Below are positions 689-31,014 of a stretch of 64,000 nucleotides of DNA, piece after piece. The number at the start of each line of letters is the position of its first letter. Position 1 is the stretch's first letter. The notes below the pieces were generated by a model that saw nothing but the letters and a program-made list of their open reading frames with translations, searched no databases and was not told the DNA's origin. Position numbers and translations under genes: made by a program. Origin of the DNA: an uncultured Acidobacteriota bacterium (lineage in GTDB: Bacteria > Acidobacteriota > UBA6911 > RPQK01); the NCBI GenBank assembly GCA_964421755.1, contig CAYQYP010000368.1, positions 39,352-103,351 on the forward strand. Direction: 5' to 3'.

Positions 689-3609
689 TTAACAGCGGAC
701 GTTGTTCAAGGCAGGCGATTTGGAAAACCAGAGAACCAAGCGCCCGCTCGCACCTCTGGCTCTGTTCGGTTGTGTGCCTGGTCCTTTGTCTGGCGCCAGC
801 CTCGACCCACGCCCAAGACCCGCCGGAGGGCAAGATCGTCACCCAGGTCGAGATCAAATCCGATGGACCGCTGAGCCGCATTTCGCTCGACGACGTTTCC
901 AAACTGATCGAGCTGCGCCACGGCGAGCCTTACTCCCAGGCTCAGGCCAAAAACACCATCCAGCGCCTTTACTCGACTGCGCTCTTTCACGACATTCATC
1001 TGGAATGGCAACCGGAGGCGGGCAACACCATCCACGTCACCGTCATCTTGATCCGTCGGTACTTCATCAAGGAGGTGACTTTCGACGGCGATCTCGGTGT
1101 CGATGAACAGATCCTGAGACGAGAGCTGGGTTTTCGCGCCGGAGAGCCGTACTCCGCCGAACGCATGGAGGAAACAACCGCTCAGCTTGTCCAAACTTAT
1201 CAGCGGTACGGCTACTACCGGGTGAAAATTCAGCCTGAATTCGAAATCCGGGAAGAAGCCGGATTCCTGCATGTGACCTTCAAGGTCGAATCAGGGGAGC
1301 GGGCCAAGGTCTCCGGCCTGGACTTTGACACCGAGGGCAATCTGGATATCAGCCAGATTCAGCGCCTCATCAAGACCAGACCGGGGGGATTCTATTCCGA
1401 GGAACAGATGGATCAGGACATTCTCGCAATCGAACGGCACCTGGCCTACCAGGGCTTCCTCGACCCGGATATCTATGTGCGAGGTGGAGCAGTCTACGAG
1501 CCGACGGCAAATACGGTTTCCGTAACCCTCAGAATCGTCCCGCGAACGCAAACACGCCTCGTGTTTGAGGGCCTCGACCCGCAAAGCAAAGAGGTCCGGA
1601 ATCTCCCGCTTTTTACTGAGCCCGGTGCTGGAGAGGCGTTTCTGGAGGACAGTGCACAGATCTTGGAGGACAGTTTCCACTCGGACGGCTATTTCCTCGC
1701 GGAAGTGACTCACGAGCTGACCGGTCCGGAGGACCAGCGAGTGCTCACCATCCGCGGTGAAAAGGGCCGCAAATGGGAGTTGGAGGCGCCGCGGTTTGAA
1801 GGGAATGCCACCATACCTTCCGAGAGGCTGGTTCAGATTCTCGGGATCCGTCCGACTGGCGTTTTCAGACGGGGCCGATTGACCGACGAGATGGTCCAGA
1901 GGGACAGGGAGAGAATTCAGTCGTTCTACGAGCAACGGGGATTCATGGAGGTTCGGGTCGATTCCGAGACCCGGCCGGACTTCCCAAGCCGGGGTGAGTT
2001 GACAGTTGTCTTCAAGATCCAGGAAGGCCCTCAGTTTTTCGTCGATAGCGTGGAGATTACCGGGAACCAGCGGGTTGGGCGGGATGTGCTGCTGAGGCAA
2101 GTCGGCTCCCGGGCGGGCCAACCATTTTCGCCCTACCAGGTTGCCCAGGATCGCTCCAATCTGGTTGCAACATATGAAGGCCTGGGATACCGCGATACGG
2201 ATCTCCGGCATGATATTTCCTATCCCCGCGCGAAGAACCACGTGGCGATCCGATACACTATAAAGGAAGGGCCCCAGTCGTTTGTCGAGCAGGTGATCGT
2301 GTCCGGGCTTCTCGACACACGAAAGTCTTCGATCCTGCGCGAGGTACAGATCGCACCCGGAGATCCTCTGTCCTTCGATCGGATTCTGCAGACGGAAAGC
2401 AACCTTCAAGACCTGGCGGTTTTCAACCGGGTGGATGTGCGTGAGGCCCCATCGTTTTCGGATCCGAATCGAAAGAGCGTCATCATCAACCTGGAAGAAG
2501 CCCGGCGGTTCAACCTCCTCTACGGTCTCGGTTACAGTTCCTACGGGGGCTTCCGGGGGACGTTCGGGGTCAGTGACTCGAATTTCCTCGGCCGGGTCAG
2601 GACGCTCTCTCTGGCTTTGCGAGGAGGCAGGCAGCGACAGAGGGGCACGCTTTCATACACGCTGGGCCGGGTGCTTGGCTGGAAGCTCCCCACCGTAGTC
2701 TCGCTGCTGGCCGACAACGAAAAGTCGGTTCGAGAGGAGATTGAGCAGGGCCGACGGGTCATCGAGGGACGCCCCTTCGACGCCTTCAGAATACAGGCAG
2801 CCGCTCAGGCGGAACGGGCACTGTCCGCAAGGGAGTCTATCTTTTTTCGCCTCAATTTCCAGAACGTGCGGATTACCGTCCCCCCCGAGCTCGCCTCCTC
2901 CGTGAAGTTTTTTCGAGAGGAAGAACGGCTTCGCCTGTCCAGCATGTCCGCGTCGTACCTGAACGACTCGCGAGACGACGCTGTCAATCCGCGAACTGGA
3001 TTCCTGCTGAGCGGCGAGGCTCTCCTTTCGACGAAACTGCTGGGCTCGGAACGGCAGTTCTTCCGGATTCTTACCCAGGGCCAATACTACCGGGAAGTCA
3101 GTCAAGGCGTGGTCTTAGTCGGCTCCCTGCGCCTCGGGACCGTTTTCCCGTTTGCCGCAGACCCGCAGCTCGAGAACGCCGTTCCCATATCCGAACGTTT
3201 CTTTGCGGGAGGCGCCACAACCTTGCGCGGGTTGCCCCAAGACCTGGCAGGTCCACTGCTTCGTGATCCGGAAACCGGGGAAATCATTCTCGTGGATGAA
3301 AACGGGGTCCCTGACCCCGACGGCCGGCCGGTTCCGCTCGGCGGAAATGCGCTGTTCATTTGCAACCTGGAGCTCAGGTTCCCGCTGTTCTGGCTCCTAT
3401 CCGGAGCTCTGTTCTACGACACCGGCAACGTCTTCCGAAGCATCACCGATTTCTCCCAGGCGGGGTTCAGCAACGCAATTGGCTTCGGGTTGCGCGCCAA
3501 CACTCCGGTTGGCCCGGTGCGCTTCGACGTCGGATACAACCCGAGTCCGCCGGCTCAGGTCGGCTTTCGCGAGTGGAACTTCCACCTGACGCTGGGACAC
3601 CCATTCTAG
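685..3609 (+). CDS. Omp85 family outer-membrane assembly factor (BamA/TamA-like) with about 7 POTRA domains
   Basis: Signal peptide; repeated POTRA-like units (e.g. IKEVTFDG...LGFRAGEPYS, VDSVEITGN...GQPFS); barrel motifs ERFFAGGATTLRG, FYDTGNV, GFGLRANTPVGPVRFDVG; terminal Phe. Start codon uncertain. Confidence 0.9.
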   Translation: MINSGRCSRQAIWKTREPSARSHLWLCSVVCLVLCLAPASTHAQDPPEGKIVTQVEIKSDGPLSRISLDDVSKLIELRHGEPYSQAQAKNTIQRLYSTALFHDIHLEWQPEAGNTIHVTVILIRRYFIKEVTFDGDLGVDEQILRRELGFRAGEPYSAERMEETTAQLVQTYQRYGYYRVKIQPEFEIREEAGFLHVTFKVESGERAKVSGLDFDTEGNLDISQIQRLIKTRPGGFYSEEQMDQDILAIERHLAYQGFLDPDIYVRGGAVYEPTANTVSVTLRIVPRTQTRLVFEGLDPQSKEVRNLPLFTEPGAGEAFLEDSAQILEDSFHSDGYFLAEVTHELTGPEDQRVLTIRGEKGRKWELEAPRFEGNATIPSERLVQILGIRPTGVFRRGRLTDEMVQRDRERIQSFYEQRGFMEVRVDSETRPDFPSRGELTVVFKIQEGPQFFVDSVEITGNQRVGRDVLLRQVGSRAGQPFSPYQVAQDRSNLVATYEGLGYRDTDLRHDISYPRAKNHVAIRYTIKEGPQSFVEQVIVSGLLDTRKSSILREVQIAPGDPLSFDRILQTESNLQDLAVFNRVDVREAPSFSDPNRKSVIINLEEARRFNLLYGLGYSSYGGFRGTFGVSDSNFLGRVRTLSLALRGGRQRQRGTLSYTLGRVLGWKLPTVVSLLADNEKSVREEIEQGRRVIEGRPFDAFRIQAAAQAERALSARESIFFRLNFQNVRITVPPELASSVKFFREEERLRLSSMSASYLNDSRDDAVNPRTGFLLSGEALLSTKLLGSERQFFRILTQGQYYREVSQGVVLVGSLRLGTVFPFAADPQLENAVPISERFFAGGATTLRGLPQDLAGPLLRDPETGEIILVDENGVPDPDGRPVPLGGNALFICNLELRFPLFWLLSGALFYDTGNVFRSITDFSQAGFSNAIGFGLRANTPVGPVRFDVGYNPSPPAQVGFREWNFHLTLGHPF

Positions 3610-4901: not shown

Positions 4902-5171
4902 TCAGTGGATCATGCTATCCAGACCCGTACCCCAGCGTTCGTGCAGAATTCGCTCAAAACGGGGCAATAAGACTATGTCAAAGGTTTGCTGCTTATCGGG
5001 AAACATCGCAAGGATGGCTTTTTCCGTATTCCGGACCATGACTCTTGCCTCTTCCAACGTCAGGCTCGAGTCTTGATACAGGACATTGGTTGTGAGATCA
5101 ACCAGAAACCGCAGTCGGCGGATCTTCTTCTCCTCTTCCTGAATCAGCCGGTCTCTTTCCTCTTTCTCCAT
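4902..5171 (-). CDS. Hypothetical helical protein (89 aa)
   Basis: Clean ORF co-oriented 16 nt upstream of dtd, protein-like composition; no function recognised. Confidence 0.7.
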   Translation of the reverse strand: MEKEERDRLIQEEEKKIRRLRFLVDLTTNVLYQDSSLTLEEARVMVRNTEKAILAMFPDKQQTFDIVLLPRFERILHERWGTGLDSMIH

Positions 5172-5249
5172 GAAATCACTGTAACATTTTGACTCTGCCG
5201 GAAGGGCGACCCACCCGGCTGACCAGCTGAACAGCTGGCCTGCCGTATC

Positions 5250-5295
5250 TTCACCTATTTTTCACTTGACATTACACCTTTGCTTCACCTACCTT
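5250..5295 (+). promoter_or_regulatory. lexA sigma70 promoter overlapped by four phased TTCACCT-like direct repeats (candidate SOS operators)
   Basis: TTGACA at 5266-5271 and TACCTT at 5290-5295; repeats TTCACCT 5250, TTCACTT 5261, TACACCT 5273, TTCACCT 5284. Confidence 0.6.
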
Positions 5296-5315
5296 GGTTT
5301 CAAAAGGAGCGATGG

Positions 5316-5915
5316 ATGCCCGTTACCCGCAGACAAAGCGAGGTCCTGCAGTTCATTAGCGAATTCCTGAATGAGCACGGCTATTCGCCGACGCTCGAGG
5401 AGATTGCTCACCACTTCGGGATGACCTCGCTCAATGGAGTCTACAAGCACCTGAAGGGACTGGAAGAGCGCGGGTTCATCCGGCGGCTCAACAAGCACGC
5501 CCGTTCAATTCAGGTGATTGAAAGAGAGACACGAGCGAGAAACACGCTTCCCCTGCTGGGCCGGGTAGCGGCGGGCCGTCCCATCGAAGCGGTGCCGTTC
5601 CCTGAAGAAATCGATGTTCCCGCTCACTTCCTCACGACACCGTCGAACTATGTGCTCAAGGTGCAGGGTGACTCCATGATCGAGGAACACATCGAAGACG
5701 GCGACTATGTGGTGCTGGAGCACCGTGACCGGGCCGAGAACGGAGAGATCGTCATGGCTCTCATCGACGGTGAAACGGCGACTCTGAAGAAATACTACCG
5801 GGAAGGCACCCAGATTCGGCTGCAGCCGGCCAATCCGAGCCTGAGCGCGATTGTTATCCCGGAGGAGCGGGTCAGAATTCAGGGTGTGGTGGTCGGCCTG
5901 ATGAGGAAATACTAA
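5316..5915 (+). CDS. lexA: SOS repressor LexA
   Basis: wHTH (TRRQSEVL...SPTLEEIA), Ala-Gly site RVAAGRP, Ser in GDSM, Lys in ATLKK; AAGGAG RBS before ATG 5316. Confidence 0.96.
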   Translation: MPVTRRQSEVLQFISEFLNEHGYSPTLEEIAHHFGMTSLNGVYKHLKGLEERGFIRRLNKHARSIQVIERETRARNTLPLLGRVAAGRPIEAVPFPEEIDVPAHFLTTPSNYVLKVQGDSMIEEHIEDGDYVVLEHRDRAENGEIVMALIDGETATLKKYYREGTQIRLQPANPSLSAIVIPEERVRIQGVVVGLMRKY

Positions 5916-6018: not shown

Positions 6019-6198
6019 ATGGTGTACCGGGTTGAGATAGCGGGGAGAGTCTTTGAGGGAACGGACCATCGGGAGCTCATCAAGCTCGCGGTCCAGGCAC
6101 GGCTTCACGCCGCAAAAACTCAATGGCCCTGGGAAACTGTCGCATCGCCGCAGAGGAACATCAGGATTCATCCAACGGAGAGAGCCACTTACGCATAA
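6019..6198 (+). CDS. Small hypothetical protein (59 aa, MVYRVEIAGRVFEGTDHRELIKLAVQARL...), below the ORF-track cutoff
   Basis: Strong AGGAGGAGG RBS 8 nt upstream of ATG 6019; TAA at 6196-6198. Confidence 0.65.
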   Translation: MVYRVEIAGRVFEGTDHRELIKLAVQARLHAAKTQWPWETVASPQRNIRIHPTERATYA

Positions 6199-9681: not shown

Positions 9682-10110
9682 ATGTCAAGACTGGCTTCAT
9701 TATTCACGATTCTGGTTGTTTCGACCGCCTGGCTGGTTGGTCAAACCGACTGGGAAAAAACCCGCAGCATCGCGGAGGCGCAGCATGAGATCGTCATGCT
9801 GGCCATTAAGAATAAGCAGTACGACAAAGTCCTGCCCAATTCCAAGAAAATCTTCGCGTTGACGTTCCCGGCCAACCGCGAGCACCTCTTGGTAGACCAC
9901 GCCAAGCTGTCAAGCAGTCTCCTGGTTGAGCAGGCCAACTACCCCCTCGCCCACCAGATCGTGGACGAAGCGATAAAAGTGGTCCACAACAACAAGTCCA
10001 AAGCCGCCCTCCTCAAGGAAAAAGCCGTTATCTGCAGTCGCGAGGGGCACGATGGCGACGCTATGAAGTTCTTCGAACAAGCGGTTAAACTTGAGGAAGG
10101 AAAACCGTAG
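9682..10110 (+). CDS. Secreted helical/TPR-like protein
   Basis: Signal peptide; C-terminal TPR-like KEKAVICSREGHDGDAMKFFEQAVKLE; 4 nt after the anti-sigma gene. Confidence 0.65.
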   Translation: MSRLASLFTILVVSTAWLVGQTDWEKTRSIAEAQHEIVMLAIKNKQYDKVLPNSKKIFALTFPANREHLLVDHAKLSSSLLVEQANYPLAHQIVDEAIKVVHNNKSKAALLKEKAVICSREGHDGDAMKFFEQAVKLEEGKP

Positions 10111-15902: not shown

Positions 15903-16478
15903 TCACGCCGGGGGCAAAGATCCCAGCGTTACCGAGCGGAGCTTGGTATAGAGGGCGCCATCGGGCCGCAGATCGCTTCGGAACAAGTGCACTTCAGAGG
16001 CAGAGAACGAGCCCGCCTGCTCGCGACCGCCATCTTTCTGCAGGTAATCTTGGAGGATCCTGATGTTCGCGCGACCTTTGAGACGGGCCAGGGTCAAGTG
16101 CGGACTGAAAGGCCTGTCTTCCCGGGGAAAGCCGAGGATCTCCAGTTCGTCGTCGATCCGGCGCTGCAGATCCGTCAGCTCGGGGACCGCCTCGATTCCC
16201 ACCCAAACGACCCGGGGGCTGGCCGGGCCCGGGAAGACTCCGACCCGGCGGCATTGAATACGTAAGACCGGGATGCCGGCCGCCGCCTTCGTCAACGCCT
16301 CTCCGATCGCGTCCACCCGAGTTTCTTCGATGTTTCCGAGAAACTTAAGCGTCAGGTGTACCGAGTCCGGTTTGGTGAAGGACCCGTCCAGACCCATCTT
16401 CATAACCTTCTGAGCGATCACGGCAAGGTCACGCTTGACGTCATCGGACAGGGCAATAGCGACAAAAGTTCGAATCAA
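15903..16478 (-). CDS. thpR: RNA 2',3'-cyclic phosphodiesterase (2H family)
   Basis: Two HxT motifs (HLTLKFLG, HLTLAR); RTFVAI start. Confidence 0.92.
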   Translation of the reverse strand: MIRTFVAIALSDDVKRDLAVIAQKVMKMGLDGSFTKPDSVHLTLKFLGNIEETRVDAIGEALTKAAAGIPVLRIQCRRVGVFPGPASPRVVWVGIEAVPELTDLQRRIDDELEILGFPREDRPFSPHLTLARLKGRANIRILQDYLQKDGGREQAGSFSASEVHLFRSDLRPDGALYTKLRSVTLGSLPPA

Positions 16479-17725
16479 ACGAGCCTCCTTCTCAGCCAGT
16501 CAAGCGCGGTCCGGGCCGCTCGGATCCTGATAACGGCCCGGTCCCCGTTCAGCTGCAACTTGCGGGATTCCGTCCCGCTACCATCCGAGATACCCAGATA
16601 GACCAAACCGACCGGCTTCTCGGTTGTTGCTCCACCGGGCCCGGCGATTCCCGTGGCAGCGAGACCGATACTGGCCTTGGATCTCGCTCTTGCACCTGCG
16701 GCCATCTGTTCAGCCACGCATGGACTTACTGCGCCGTGCACGCTCAAGTCATCTTCTTTCACTCCAAGCCAATCGATTTTCGCCTGGTTGCTATACGTCA
16801 CGAAGCCGCCCAGCAGGTAATCGGAGCTCCCAGGCACCTCGGTCAGCATCTGCATGATCAATCCTCCGGTGCAGGACTCGGCCACGGCCAGCGTCTTGCC
16901 CTGTTGTCTCAGGAGCTCGCCCACGGCGCACTCGAGCGTTTGCTCCGCCTCGGCGTAAACCAGGTCGCCGAGAACCCCGCGGACCCGAGCGACCAGTTCA
17001 TCGAGCAACCGATGGCCTTCGGCTTCAGGCTGGTCCGCGTCGAGAGGACGCCAATAGAAGAAGAGATCGATAATGCCGGTTGATGCAAGGATCGTCGTCT
17101 CGACGTCCGCATAGGAGCGGTAGATCGGAGAAGCGAGGAAATCCACGCGGGATTCGGCCTCGCCGGCAATCTTCAGTTGCCGGTAAAGAGTAGTCTCGGT
17201 GCCAAGCCGTGTCCTGATTGCCGGGATCACCTGATCAACCACCATCGGTTCCAGTTCTCGAGGGGGCCCCGGCAGCAGAAAAATCAACTTGCCCGATTCC
17301 TCGAGCATGAGTCCGGGCGCGGTTCCGTTCGGATTGGGGAGCACTTGTGCGCCGCTTGGCACAAGCGCCTGCCGCTGGTTGTTCGGAGGCATGGTCATCC
17401 CCGTTCGCTGATACCGCCTCCGAATCTTCTCCAGGACCTGTTCGTCGAGCCGGAGCGGACGCTCGAGCACATCGGCAACGACTTCACGATTGATGTCGTC
17501 TGTGGTCGGACCGAGGCCACCGGTCAGGAACACCACATCGGAGGTCTCCAAGGCCCGGGCGATGCTGGCGCGTAAATCCTCGGCGCGATCTCCGACCACC
17601 GTCTTGCGTGCGACCAGCGCTCCGATCAAGTTCAGCTGACGGGTGATGAACAGTGAATTGGTGTCCAGACGCCAAGGCGTCAGGAGCTCAGATCCAACGG
17701 CGATGATCTCGGCACGAATAGGCAT
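16475..17725 (-). CDS. cinA: Competence/damage-inducible protein A (CinA, with NMN deamidase domain)
   Basis: AEIIAVGSELL, DTNS, GGLGPT.DD, AESCTGG, TGIAGP.G. Confidence 0.93.
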   Translation of the reverse strand: MPIRAEIIAVGSELLTPWRLDTNSLFITRQLNLIGALVARKTVVGDRAEDLRASIARALETSDVVFLTGGLGPTTDDINREVVADVLERPLRLDEQVLEKIRRRYQRTGMTMPPNNQRQALVPSGAQVLPNPNGTAPGLMLEESGKLIFLLPGPPRELEPMVVDQVIPAIRTRLGTETTLYRQLKIAGEAESRVDFLASPIYRSYADVETTILASTGIIDLFFYWRPLDADQPEAEGHRLLDELVARVRGVLGDLVYAEAEQTLECAVGELLRQQGKTLAVAESCTGGLIMQMLTEVPGSSDYLLGGFVTYSNQAKIDWLGVKEDDLSVHGAVSPCVAEQMAAGARARSKASIGLAATGIAGPGGATTEKPVGLVYLGISDGSGTESRKLQLNGDRAVIRIRAARTALDWLRRRLV

Positions 17726-17730
17726 GAATA

Positions 17731-18216
17731 TCAGCGGAAATAGTTGATGCCGGTAATGACGAGACCCGCATAAACGCCTGCGATCAGGTCGTCGCCTATG
17801 ATCCCGAAACCGCCCGGCAGGTGCTCCGCCCTGCCTGCTGGAAAGGGCTTGGAAATGTCGAAAAACCGGAACAGTACGAACCCGAGGATGAGGCTGGTCG
17901 TCGTGATAGGAACCCAAAGAAAACAGACCATTTGGCCGACCATCTCGTCGGCCACCACATTCTGAGGATCCGGGTCCTCTTCCAGACTAGCCATGCGGTC
18001 AGCTGCAACGATCGCAAGGATGCCCAGCACAACGAAGAGAATCCAGATGAGCGGAAGTTGAATCGCGGGCAGAAAAACGTGAATGAGGATAACCAGCAGG
18101 AGCCCCTCGGCCGCGCCCCAGGTCCCTGGGGCAAGGGGCATACGACCTGCGCCGAAGCCGGTCGCGAAAGCACGGACGAGGTGGTCGGTCTTATTCTGGT
18201 TCAGCATCCGTGTCAT
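17731..18216 (-). CDS. pgpA: Phosphatidylglycerophosphatase A
   Basis: [39 protein letters not shown]. Confidence 0.93.
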
Positions 18217-30354: not shown

Positions 30355-30951
30355 TTATCCGGAAATCTGTTTGAGCGACTTCCTCAGTAGATCTTCGAAC
30401 CGTCGCGTATCGGTCTGGCCCAACACTCGCCCGACCGCCTTTTCAGCGACATTGCGAGCATACCCGAGGTTCACCAGCGCCGAGACGACGTCTTCCTGAA
30501 CAGGAGATGTCAGAGTCGCCGACTCGGGGAGCTGTTCGGCGGATGCCAGGGTCCGCGCCTTCTCCTTGAGCTCCAGAACGATACGCTCGGCCGTTTTCTT
30601 CCCGATCCCCGGAATACTGCTCAGCCGGACGATGTCTCCCTGGCTGACGGCCCGGATCAACTCGTCGACCGGCAGCCCCGACAACGCCGTCACGGCCAGT
30701 CGCGGTCCAACACCGGAGACCTGGATCAGAAGTGTGAATACGCGCTTCTCGAGCGATGTCAGAAAGCCGTACAGCAAGAGTGCATCCTCGCGCACGTGGG
30801 TGTAGATATGGAGGTCGACCAGTTCGCCGGGATCCCCCAGGTCGTAATACGTCGAGAATGGAATCAGGACCTCGTATCCGACGCCGCCCACGTCCACAAC
30901 GATTCGATCGGCAGCCTTGCTGCGCAACGTCCCCTTGAGCCAGGCAATCAT
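30355..30951 (-). CDS. ruvA: Holliday junction DNA-binding protein RuvA
   Basis: [46 protein letters not shown]. Confidence 0.97.
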
Positions 30952-31014
30952 ACTAGAAGGGATTATACGGGATAGGGATGGCTTTTCCGTCCGAAGTTTG
31001 TGACAGGTGCAGGA

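Follow-up and report, generated by a model that had tools for sequence, protein, structure and literature searches.

TTCACC direct repeats in the lexA promoters of uncultured Acidobacteriota, a probable sequence variant of the direct-repeat SOS box

Four phased TTCACC-type repeats in the lexA promoter of an uncultured Acidobacteriota bacterium were read as two LexA autoregulatory operators that would block RNA polymerase, and a probability of roughly 0.7 was assigned to this reading. The repeats, very probably LexA's own sites, appear to be a previously undescribed form, differing in sequence, of the established direct-repeat SOS box. They were located within a contig stretch of 64,000 nucleotides, and this whole stretch is referred to as the window. 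LexA as the binding protein, a stoichiometry of two dimers and service of the motif at other SOS genes are predictions made from the sequence.

Read directly from the DNA, positions 5250-5290 of the forward strand are TTCACCT-ATTT-TTCACTT-GACAT-TACACCT-TTGC-TTCACCT. The repeats start at 5250, 5261, 5273 and 5284 (start-to-start distances of 11, 12 and 11) and are arranged as two dimers of the type TTCACC-N5-TTCAC, a distal one at 5249-5267 and a proximal one at 5272-5290. The repeats, the predicted promoter elements and the gene are listed below.

5250-5256 (+): repeat 1, TTCACCT, opening half-site of the distal dimer (weight-matrix site 5249-5267, 28.6 bits)
5261-5267 (+): repeat 2, TTCACTT, closing half-site of the distal dimer; its final two bases are the initial two of the -35 hexamer
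5266-5271 (+): putative -35 hexamer TTGACA, assigned from the sequence and from conservation of cTTGAC directly before the proximal dimer in the alignment of relatives
5273-5279 (+): repeat 3, TACACCT, opening half-site of the proximal dimer (weight-matrix site 5272-5290, 27.0 bits)
5284-5290 (+): repeat 4, TTCACCT, closing half-site of the proximal dimer, abutting the -10 hexamer
5290-5295 (+): putative weak -10 hexamer TACCTT, 18 nt past the -35, assigned from the sequence and the alignment of relatives
5304-5309 (+): ribosome-binding site AAGGAG, assigned from the sequence
5316-5915 (+): lexA, 199 aa, TIGR00498 match with E = 3.4e-59

The heptamer TTCACCT by itself occurred at chance level, with 7 copies found in the 64 kb against 6.9 expected. 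The phased chain was above chance. Linked pairs were defined by at most one mismatch and a spacing of 10-12; three such pairs were found on the forward strand, every one of them at the lexA promoter. Random sequences (60, first-order Markov, matched to the window in composition) averaged 0.63 pairs, and in none of them did a chain of three occur. The four helically phased repeats described in the initial annotation were confirmed by the sequence in their starts and spacings, and as a chain they are non-random.

The distal dimer overlaps the predicted -35 hexamer, while the proximal dimer (repeats 3 and 4) fills the 18-nt spacer to the -10. The lexA promoter was not called in a scan for consensus promoters because its -10 hexamer matches TATAAT at only three of six positions; TACCTT fits the TAnnnT skeleton only. 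In relatives the -10 position is occupied by CATAAT, TACATT or CATACT. The assignment of both hexamers, the short leader and the transcription start are predicted from these comparisons. That the repeats lie over the lexA promoter, as was also claimed in the initial annotation, was borne out: the -35 is overlapped, the spacer is filled and the weak -10 is touched.

A residue-level alignment of the encoded LexA to the LexA structures of E. coli and T. maritima spans the whole protein. The encoded LexA is of the canonical type, with a winged helix-turn-helix domain and an S24 self-cleaving repressor domain; the catalytic Ser (in GDSM) and the Lys are present, as is the Ala-Gly cleavage site. Its recognition helix is TSLNGVYKHLK. 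Between the repeats and the divergent small gene p89 lies a 16-bp palindrome, CCAGCTG-AA-CAGCTGG (CCAGCTGAACAGCTGG, 5223-5238). As a possible LexA site in place of the repeats it was rejected, since it is missing even in the closest relative (L001).

For comparison, 80 lexA loci were collected in one scan of species-representative genomes, nearly all of them from Acidobacteriota MAGs. A TTCAC-type dimer was present in 18 of the 19 loci with a 58-86% identical LexA (L001-L019), the exception being L009. The clade dimer has the consensus TTCACCtttnnTTCACC and is placed directly 3' of cTTGAC and 5' of the -10. In the alignment of relatives the proximal dimer, TTCACCTTTnnTTCACC, was the most conserved block of the promoter, above the -10. 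A second dimer, TTCACCtttnnTTCACT, was found upstream of the -35 in 12 of 20 promoters (window counted). Every clade dimer has a period of 11. The offset between the two dimers is mostly 30-31 bp in relatives and 23 bp in the window and L001, and all offsets are near whole helical turns.

A weight matrix of 19 nt was built from 30 sites, that is, 60 half-sites (23 bits). Within the window its next-best score was 11.9, against 28.6 and 27.0 for the two lexA dimers, and sites of at least 18 bits were confined to lexA promoters across the window, the 80 loci and clade loci added later. The strict pattern TTCAC-N6-TTCAC gave 26 matches in the 3,275 nt upstream of lexA, distributed over 19 of the 22 clade promoters; the initial annotation had named absence from recA and orthologous lexA promoters as a refutation of its proposal, and the lexA half of this test was passed. 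Outside the lexA promoters the strict pattern had no match in the remaining sequence of the window and the clade loci, which amounts to 442,115 nt with both strands counted. Likewise, no second site was seen in about 221 kb of clade DNA (the 64-kb window and about 157 kb of related loci). The 10-kb flanks of the clade lexA genes, which mostly hold the window's syntenic genes, contained no further site.

The box was also present in L421 and in L420, where lexA has different gene neighbours. It follows lexA rather than the neighbouring genes, being kept in L420 and in loci that lack p89. In L009 the TTCAC box was absent within 3 kb upstream of lexA, though the LexA helix is the same as that of the clade. 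There (2660-3000) the upstream gene, on the same strand, is dtd, and in place of the box the intergenic region contains repeats of AGCGCACA words. Among the nearest 120 LexA clusters, all unnamed or MAG-derived, 114 keep the helix S[LV]N[GA]xxKHL.

Conservation of this kind could also arise with no specific binder, if the repeats were an inherited promoter architecture such as phased T-rich or bent DNA or reiterated -35-like words. In favour of it, the repeats have a helical phasing and a high T content, the -35 shares bases with repeat 2, and monophyly of the clade makes part of the conservation a matter of inheritance. We nevertheless consider this account very improbable. The -35/-10 spacer, which here holds the most conserved block, normally varies freely, and the half-sites remain unchanged while LexA identity drops to 58%. 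The strict dimer is absent from the remaining 442 kb, in which many other promoters lie. Finally, sister clades swap the word and keep both the repeat and its position, as follows.

Vicinamibacterales, Marinacidobacterales and allies carry TTCGCC-N5-TT(C/T)GC in the lexA promoter. The lexA promoters of Thermoanaerobaculia and Holophagales (L031-L080) contain a near-invariant block, cTTGCA-TTACGC-N4-TTACCGC-CTATACT, about 40 nt upstream of lexA, with an ATG within about 10 nt. The repeat in this block, TTACGC-N4-TTACCGC, is a second candidate LexA motif for which no description was found. The sister operators share with the TTCACC type the position in the lexA promoter (from TTGAC or TTGCA to the -10), the direct repeat and a period of 10-11 bp. 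They differ in word and helix: TTCGCC is one half-site base away (G instead of A), and the helices of the cognate LexA proteins are others. As judged from these alignments, the TTCACC motif belongs to a series of putative direct-repeat operators that runs through the phylum (TTCACC, TTACACC, TTCGCC and TTACGC).

In the LexA tree three well-supported clades correspond one-to-one with the operator types, and the three label changes required are the possible minimum. The TTCACC clade has the helix SLNG[VI]YKHL, the TTCGCC/TTTGC clade SS[LV]ATVHKH and the TTACGC-N4-TTACCGC clade SSYGT[AV]YKHL. The form SLNGVYKHL is one that we take to be unlike the alphaproteobacterial LexA type. L020 and L021, a long-branch pair nested in the TTCACC clade, combine the helix SPNAAFKHL with the word TTACACC-N4-TTACACC. 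By alignment, the variable helix positions are the equivalents of Pro40, Ala42, Ala43, Glu44 and Glu45 of E. coli LexA; the Asn41 equivalent is retained only in both putatively CAC-reading groups. In the LexA-DNA structure the recognition helix makes base contacts. Co-variation of half-site and helix is the behaviour expected of a LexA site and is taken as supportive rather than conclusive because the independent events are few: it covers three to four clades, and shared ancestry alone could yield the same pattern.

The pattern has a second possible reader. The repeats could be bound, in place of LexA, by an OmpR/PhoB-family response regulator of the winged-helix type or by another tandem-binding regulator that controls lexA. 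PHO boxes consist of at least two tandem direct-repeat units of 11 nt, each with 7 conserved and 4 variable, less conserved bases, and their core is CTGTCAT in E. coli and GTTCACC in Streptomyces coelicolor (PMC4415409). M. tuberculosis PhoP likewise binds 7-bp direct repeats with a 4-bp spacer (PMC4832192). The lexA repeats share the tandem 11-nt units, the division into 7 and 4 bases and, with the Streptomyces box, a nearly identical core word; moreover, lexA is the only SOS gene seen with the motif in this clade. On the viral contigs L378 (about 1163-1290), L399 and L328, TTCACC-type units recur every 11 bp in long arrays that look like iterons, with at least seven copies of TTTCACCCTGT on L378. 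Scans of viral contigs for one or two dimers returned, among the matches listed, unrelated AT-rich DNA and phage iterons. Since PHO boxes and phage iterons share the pattern, the pattern alone does not identify LexA.

PHO boxes are, however, found in promoters of the phosphate regulon, and the response regulator that binds them is phosphorylated, whereas the TTCACC site is confined to lexA promoters and co-varies with LexA. In L421 a Na/Pi cotransporter gene and phoU form a pair 5 kb from lexA, and no site near them reached 12 bits; with a single locus, this test is weak. The site occupies a repressor position, the -35/-10 spacer in front of an autoregulating repressor's own gene. Its half-site shifts in step with the LexA helix, which a foreign regulator would track only by coincidence, and a sister-type repeat occurs at a recA promoter (see below). 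A response regulator as the binder in place of LexA was therefore regarded as improbable, and LexA remains the preferred candidate.

Two small genes flank lexA, and either product might be suspected of binding the repeats.

6019-6198 (+): p59, a conserved small ORF with a strong ribosome-binding site, directly 3' of lexA after a gap of 103 nt
4902-5171 (-): p89, 89 aa, divergent from lexA, with which it shares a 144-bp intergenic region

By tblastn, p59 was detected downstream of lexA in 15 loci, namely 14 of L001-L019 and L026 (the promoter of L026 lies outside the dataset). It was undetected by tblastn in L004, L010 and L018, which keep the box. In CP070717.1 p59 is a called gene of 56 aa. 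Its first 30 or so residues are conserved (M.Y[RQ][VI].[VI].G[RK].F[EQ]G.D.R.L[LI][KR].AV) and the tail is variable. It was modelled as a beta-hairpin followed by a helix, at low confidence (pLDDT 64). p89 was detected by tblastn in 13 related loci, in 11 of them on the opposite strand upstream of lexA, and has 20 invariant residues. It was modelled with confidence (pLDDT 93) as a three-helix bundle. No match to p89 was obtained in Pfam or NCBIfam, and no fold match in the PDB.

Both proteins are clade-confined, lexA-linked and without known function, which would suit a dedicated binder. The distribution argues against either of them. For p89, a plain three-helix bundle, no DNA-binding relative was found, and it is missing beside lexA in L004, L011, L017, L019 and L420, all five of which retain the box. 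The conserved core of p59, about 30 residues with a beta-hairpin and one helix, is small, and the protein was undetected in three loci with the box. In the sister-clade loci, where equivalent repeats are present, homologues of p59 and p89 were not detected by tblastn. Binding of the repeats by p59 or p89 was accordingly given a very slim chance. p59 probably shares a transcript with lexA, in which case the lexA operator would control it too, and its product may be a micro-protein induced by damage. p89 may be co-regulated, and the repeats do not need p89.

Other SOS genes were searched for the motif. With E. coli RecA and UvrA queries, neither recA nor uvrA was found by tblastn in the window or the related loci. 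The window holds ruvA, ruvB and cinA-thpR, and no site was found at ruvAB or cinA. The half-site TGCACCT that had been pointed out upstream of ruvA is real (31005-31011, reverse strand; ruvA ATG at 30951); it is unpaired, with the partner half-site absent, and at chance level, as 5 copies were found and 5.5 expected. On the reverse strand of the window (15903-17917) cinA is followed by thpR, which encodes an RNA 2',3'-cyclic phosphodiesterase, and then by a heptosyltransferase gene rather than recA. Deinococcus and Thermus have the arrangement cinA-ligT-recA, of which cinA-thpR in the window corresponds to the first part.

For recA, metagenomes were scanned for TTCAC-N6-TTCAC placed 81-141 nt upstream of codons for the RecA motif [FY]GKGx[IV]M. 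Five recA matches were obtained, none of them from the TTCAC clade. The window organism is in the collection, but the scan was narrow, as only an assembled recA with exact half-sites within a set range of distances could match. Because of this narrow pattern, the null result counts only weakly against control of recA by the motif in this clade. Two of the five matches were from Terriglobia (L200 and L202) and carried the sister motif; the rest were from other taxa, and the match in L201 overlaps the ribosome-binding region directly before the ATG. The recA loci of IMG/VR were phage or foreign recAs in which the motif was absent. Contigs from two metagenome runs containing the window, when aligned to a recA gene, proved to be an inseparable mixture from many organisms. 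On L203, a metagenome contig of low GC content (34%), recA is preceded at about 90 nt by GTTCACCCTCTGTTCAC, which fits the alphaproteobacterial GTTC-N7-GTTC type.

The recA promoter of L200 and L202 reads TTCAC-aataat-TTCAC-tga-TTCGCC-tttta-TTCGC ... TATAAT, and Sulfotelmatobacter-type recA promoters carry TTTCGCCtttgTTTCGC at the equivalent place. In Terriglobia TTCGCC-N5-TTCGC is located in the -35 region of recA, upstream of the TATAAT -10 (L200, 619-660; L210, about 9880-9930), and is the sole such site in each locus of 11-21 kb. The dimer upstream of it varies, being TTCAC-N6-TTCAC in L200 and TTCGT-N6-TTTAG in L210. A search for RecA homologues starting from L200 returned Terriglobia only, at 90% identity or above. 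The occurrence of the sister word both at lexA, in other classes, and at the recA of Terriglobia ties the repeat family to the SOS system, across genomes and not within one genome. The reading given in the initial annotation was partly supported: the site is conserved in lexA promoters (19/22) and its half-site changes with the LexA helix. As an SOS box in the sense of a regulon the motif is a candidate, no second clade gene with it having been encountered in the approximately 221 kb.

Direct-repeat LexA boxes of the form GTTC-N7-GTTC are found in Alphaproteobacteria, among them Caulobacter, Rhodobacter and Sinorhizobium (PMC8565304, PMC9578287). The GTTC-N7-GTTC type has been reported for Acidobacterium capsulatum as well (Mazon 2006, cited in PMC7739468). 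The window motif shares with this box a direct repeat rather than a palindrome, the 11-bp period, the TTC core and the location in the lexA promoter, LexA being the predicted binder here. It differs in the word, which in the window clade is TTCAC(C) with the consensus tTTCACC. The base before TTC is mostly T; of the 60 half-sites used for the weight matrix only 2 have a G there, and none of the four window repeats does. The claim of an equal 11-bp direct-repeat period with a sequence different from GTTC-N7-GTTC was upheld by these counts.

In Balneolaeota a LexA motif, TTACACATATTTTWTACATA, was found by motif discovery on lexA promoters and validated by EMSA, and the reconstructed regulon comprises lexA, recA and translesion polymerases (PMC7739468). 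This motif too is a direct repeat recovered from lexA promoters of a poorly studied lineage, and its TTACAC resembles the TACACC of repeat 3 and the TTACACC of L020 and L021. Its spacing, as taken from the printed consensus, is about 13 bp and not 11 bp, and the window motif is known from sequence only. No description of a TTCAC-type LexA box was found in the full-text literature, Mazon 2006 and Zhang 2010 being outside this search. As the architecture is shared, the GTTC word is replaced and a description was not found in that literature, the repeats were filed as a putative variant of the direct-repeat SOS box.

LexA autoregulates in essentially all studied bacteria. In the proposed mechanism each operator would be a TTCACC direct repeat with an 11-bp period and the consensus tTTCACCTTTnnTTCACy, bound by one LexA dimer apiece. 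The proximal operator (5272-5290) would occupy the -35/-10 spacer and the distal one (5249-5267) would overlap the -35; because the operators fill the spacer and overlap the -35, bound LexA would exclude RNA polymerase from the lexA promoter, resulting in negative autoregulation. Upon DNA damage, RecA-stimulated self-cleavage of LexA would free the lexA promoter and, with it, probably p59.

A broader reading was formulated as well and is offered as a tentative proposal, doubtful when all of its parts are taken jointly. According to it, Acidobacteriota LexA proteins would form a series acting on direct repeats, in which the half-site drifts with the helix through TTCGCC, TTCACC, TTACACC and TTACGC/TTACCGC, and the residues concerned would be the equivalents of E. 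coli Asn41, Ala42, Glu44 and Glu45. The TTCACC clade would be an undescribed specificity class whose regulon may have shrunk to lexA and the linked p59, with recA outside LexA control. If this were true, the TTCACC specificity class would span a large uncultured lineage of at least 120 protein clusters.

Prediction of the SOS regulon in a lineage depends on knowing its LexA-binding motif, which has had to be worked out separately for each major group, including Alphaproteobacteria, Verrucomicrobia, Patescibacteria, Balneolaeota and Bacteroidetes. The SOS response as generally understood would stay unchanged, and no new principle would be added. The TTCACC motif and its sister motifs make up a graded series in which one half-site base changes with a handful of helix residues. 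This series could be used to test how LexA specificity changes and how a direct repeat is read by a symmetric dimer. For a large clade of Acidobacteriota from soil and freshwater sediment that is represented by metagenomes only, the TTCACC motif would supply the key to the SOS regulon.
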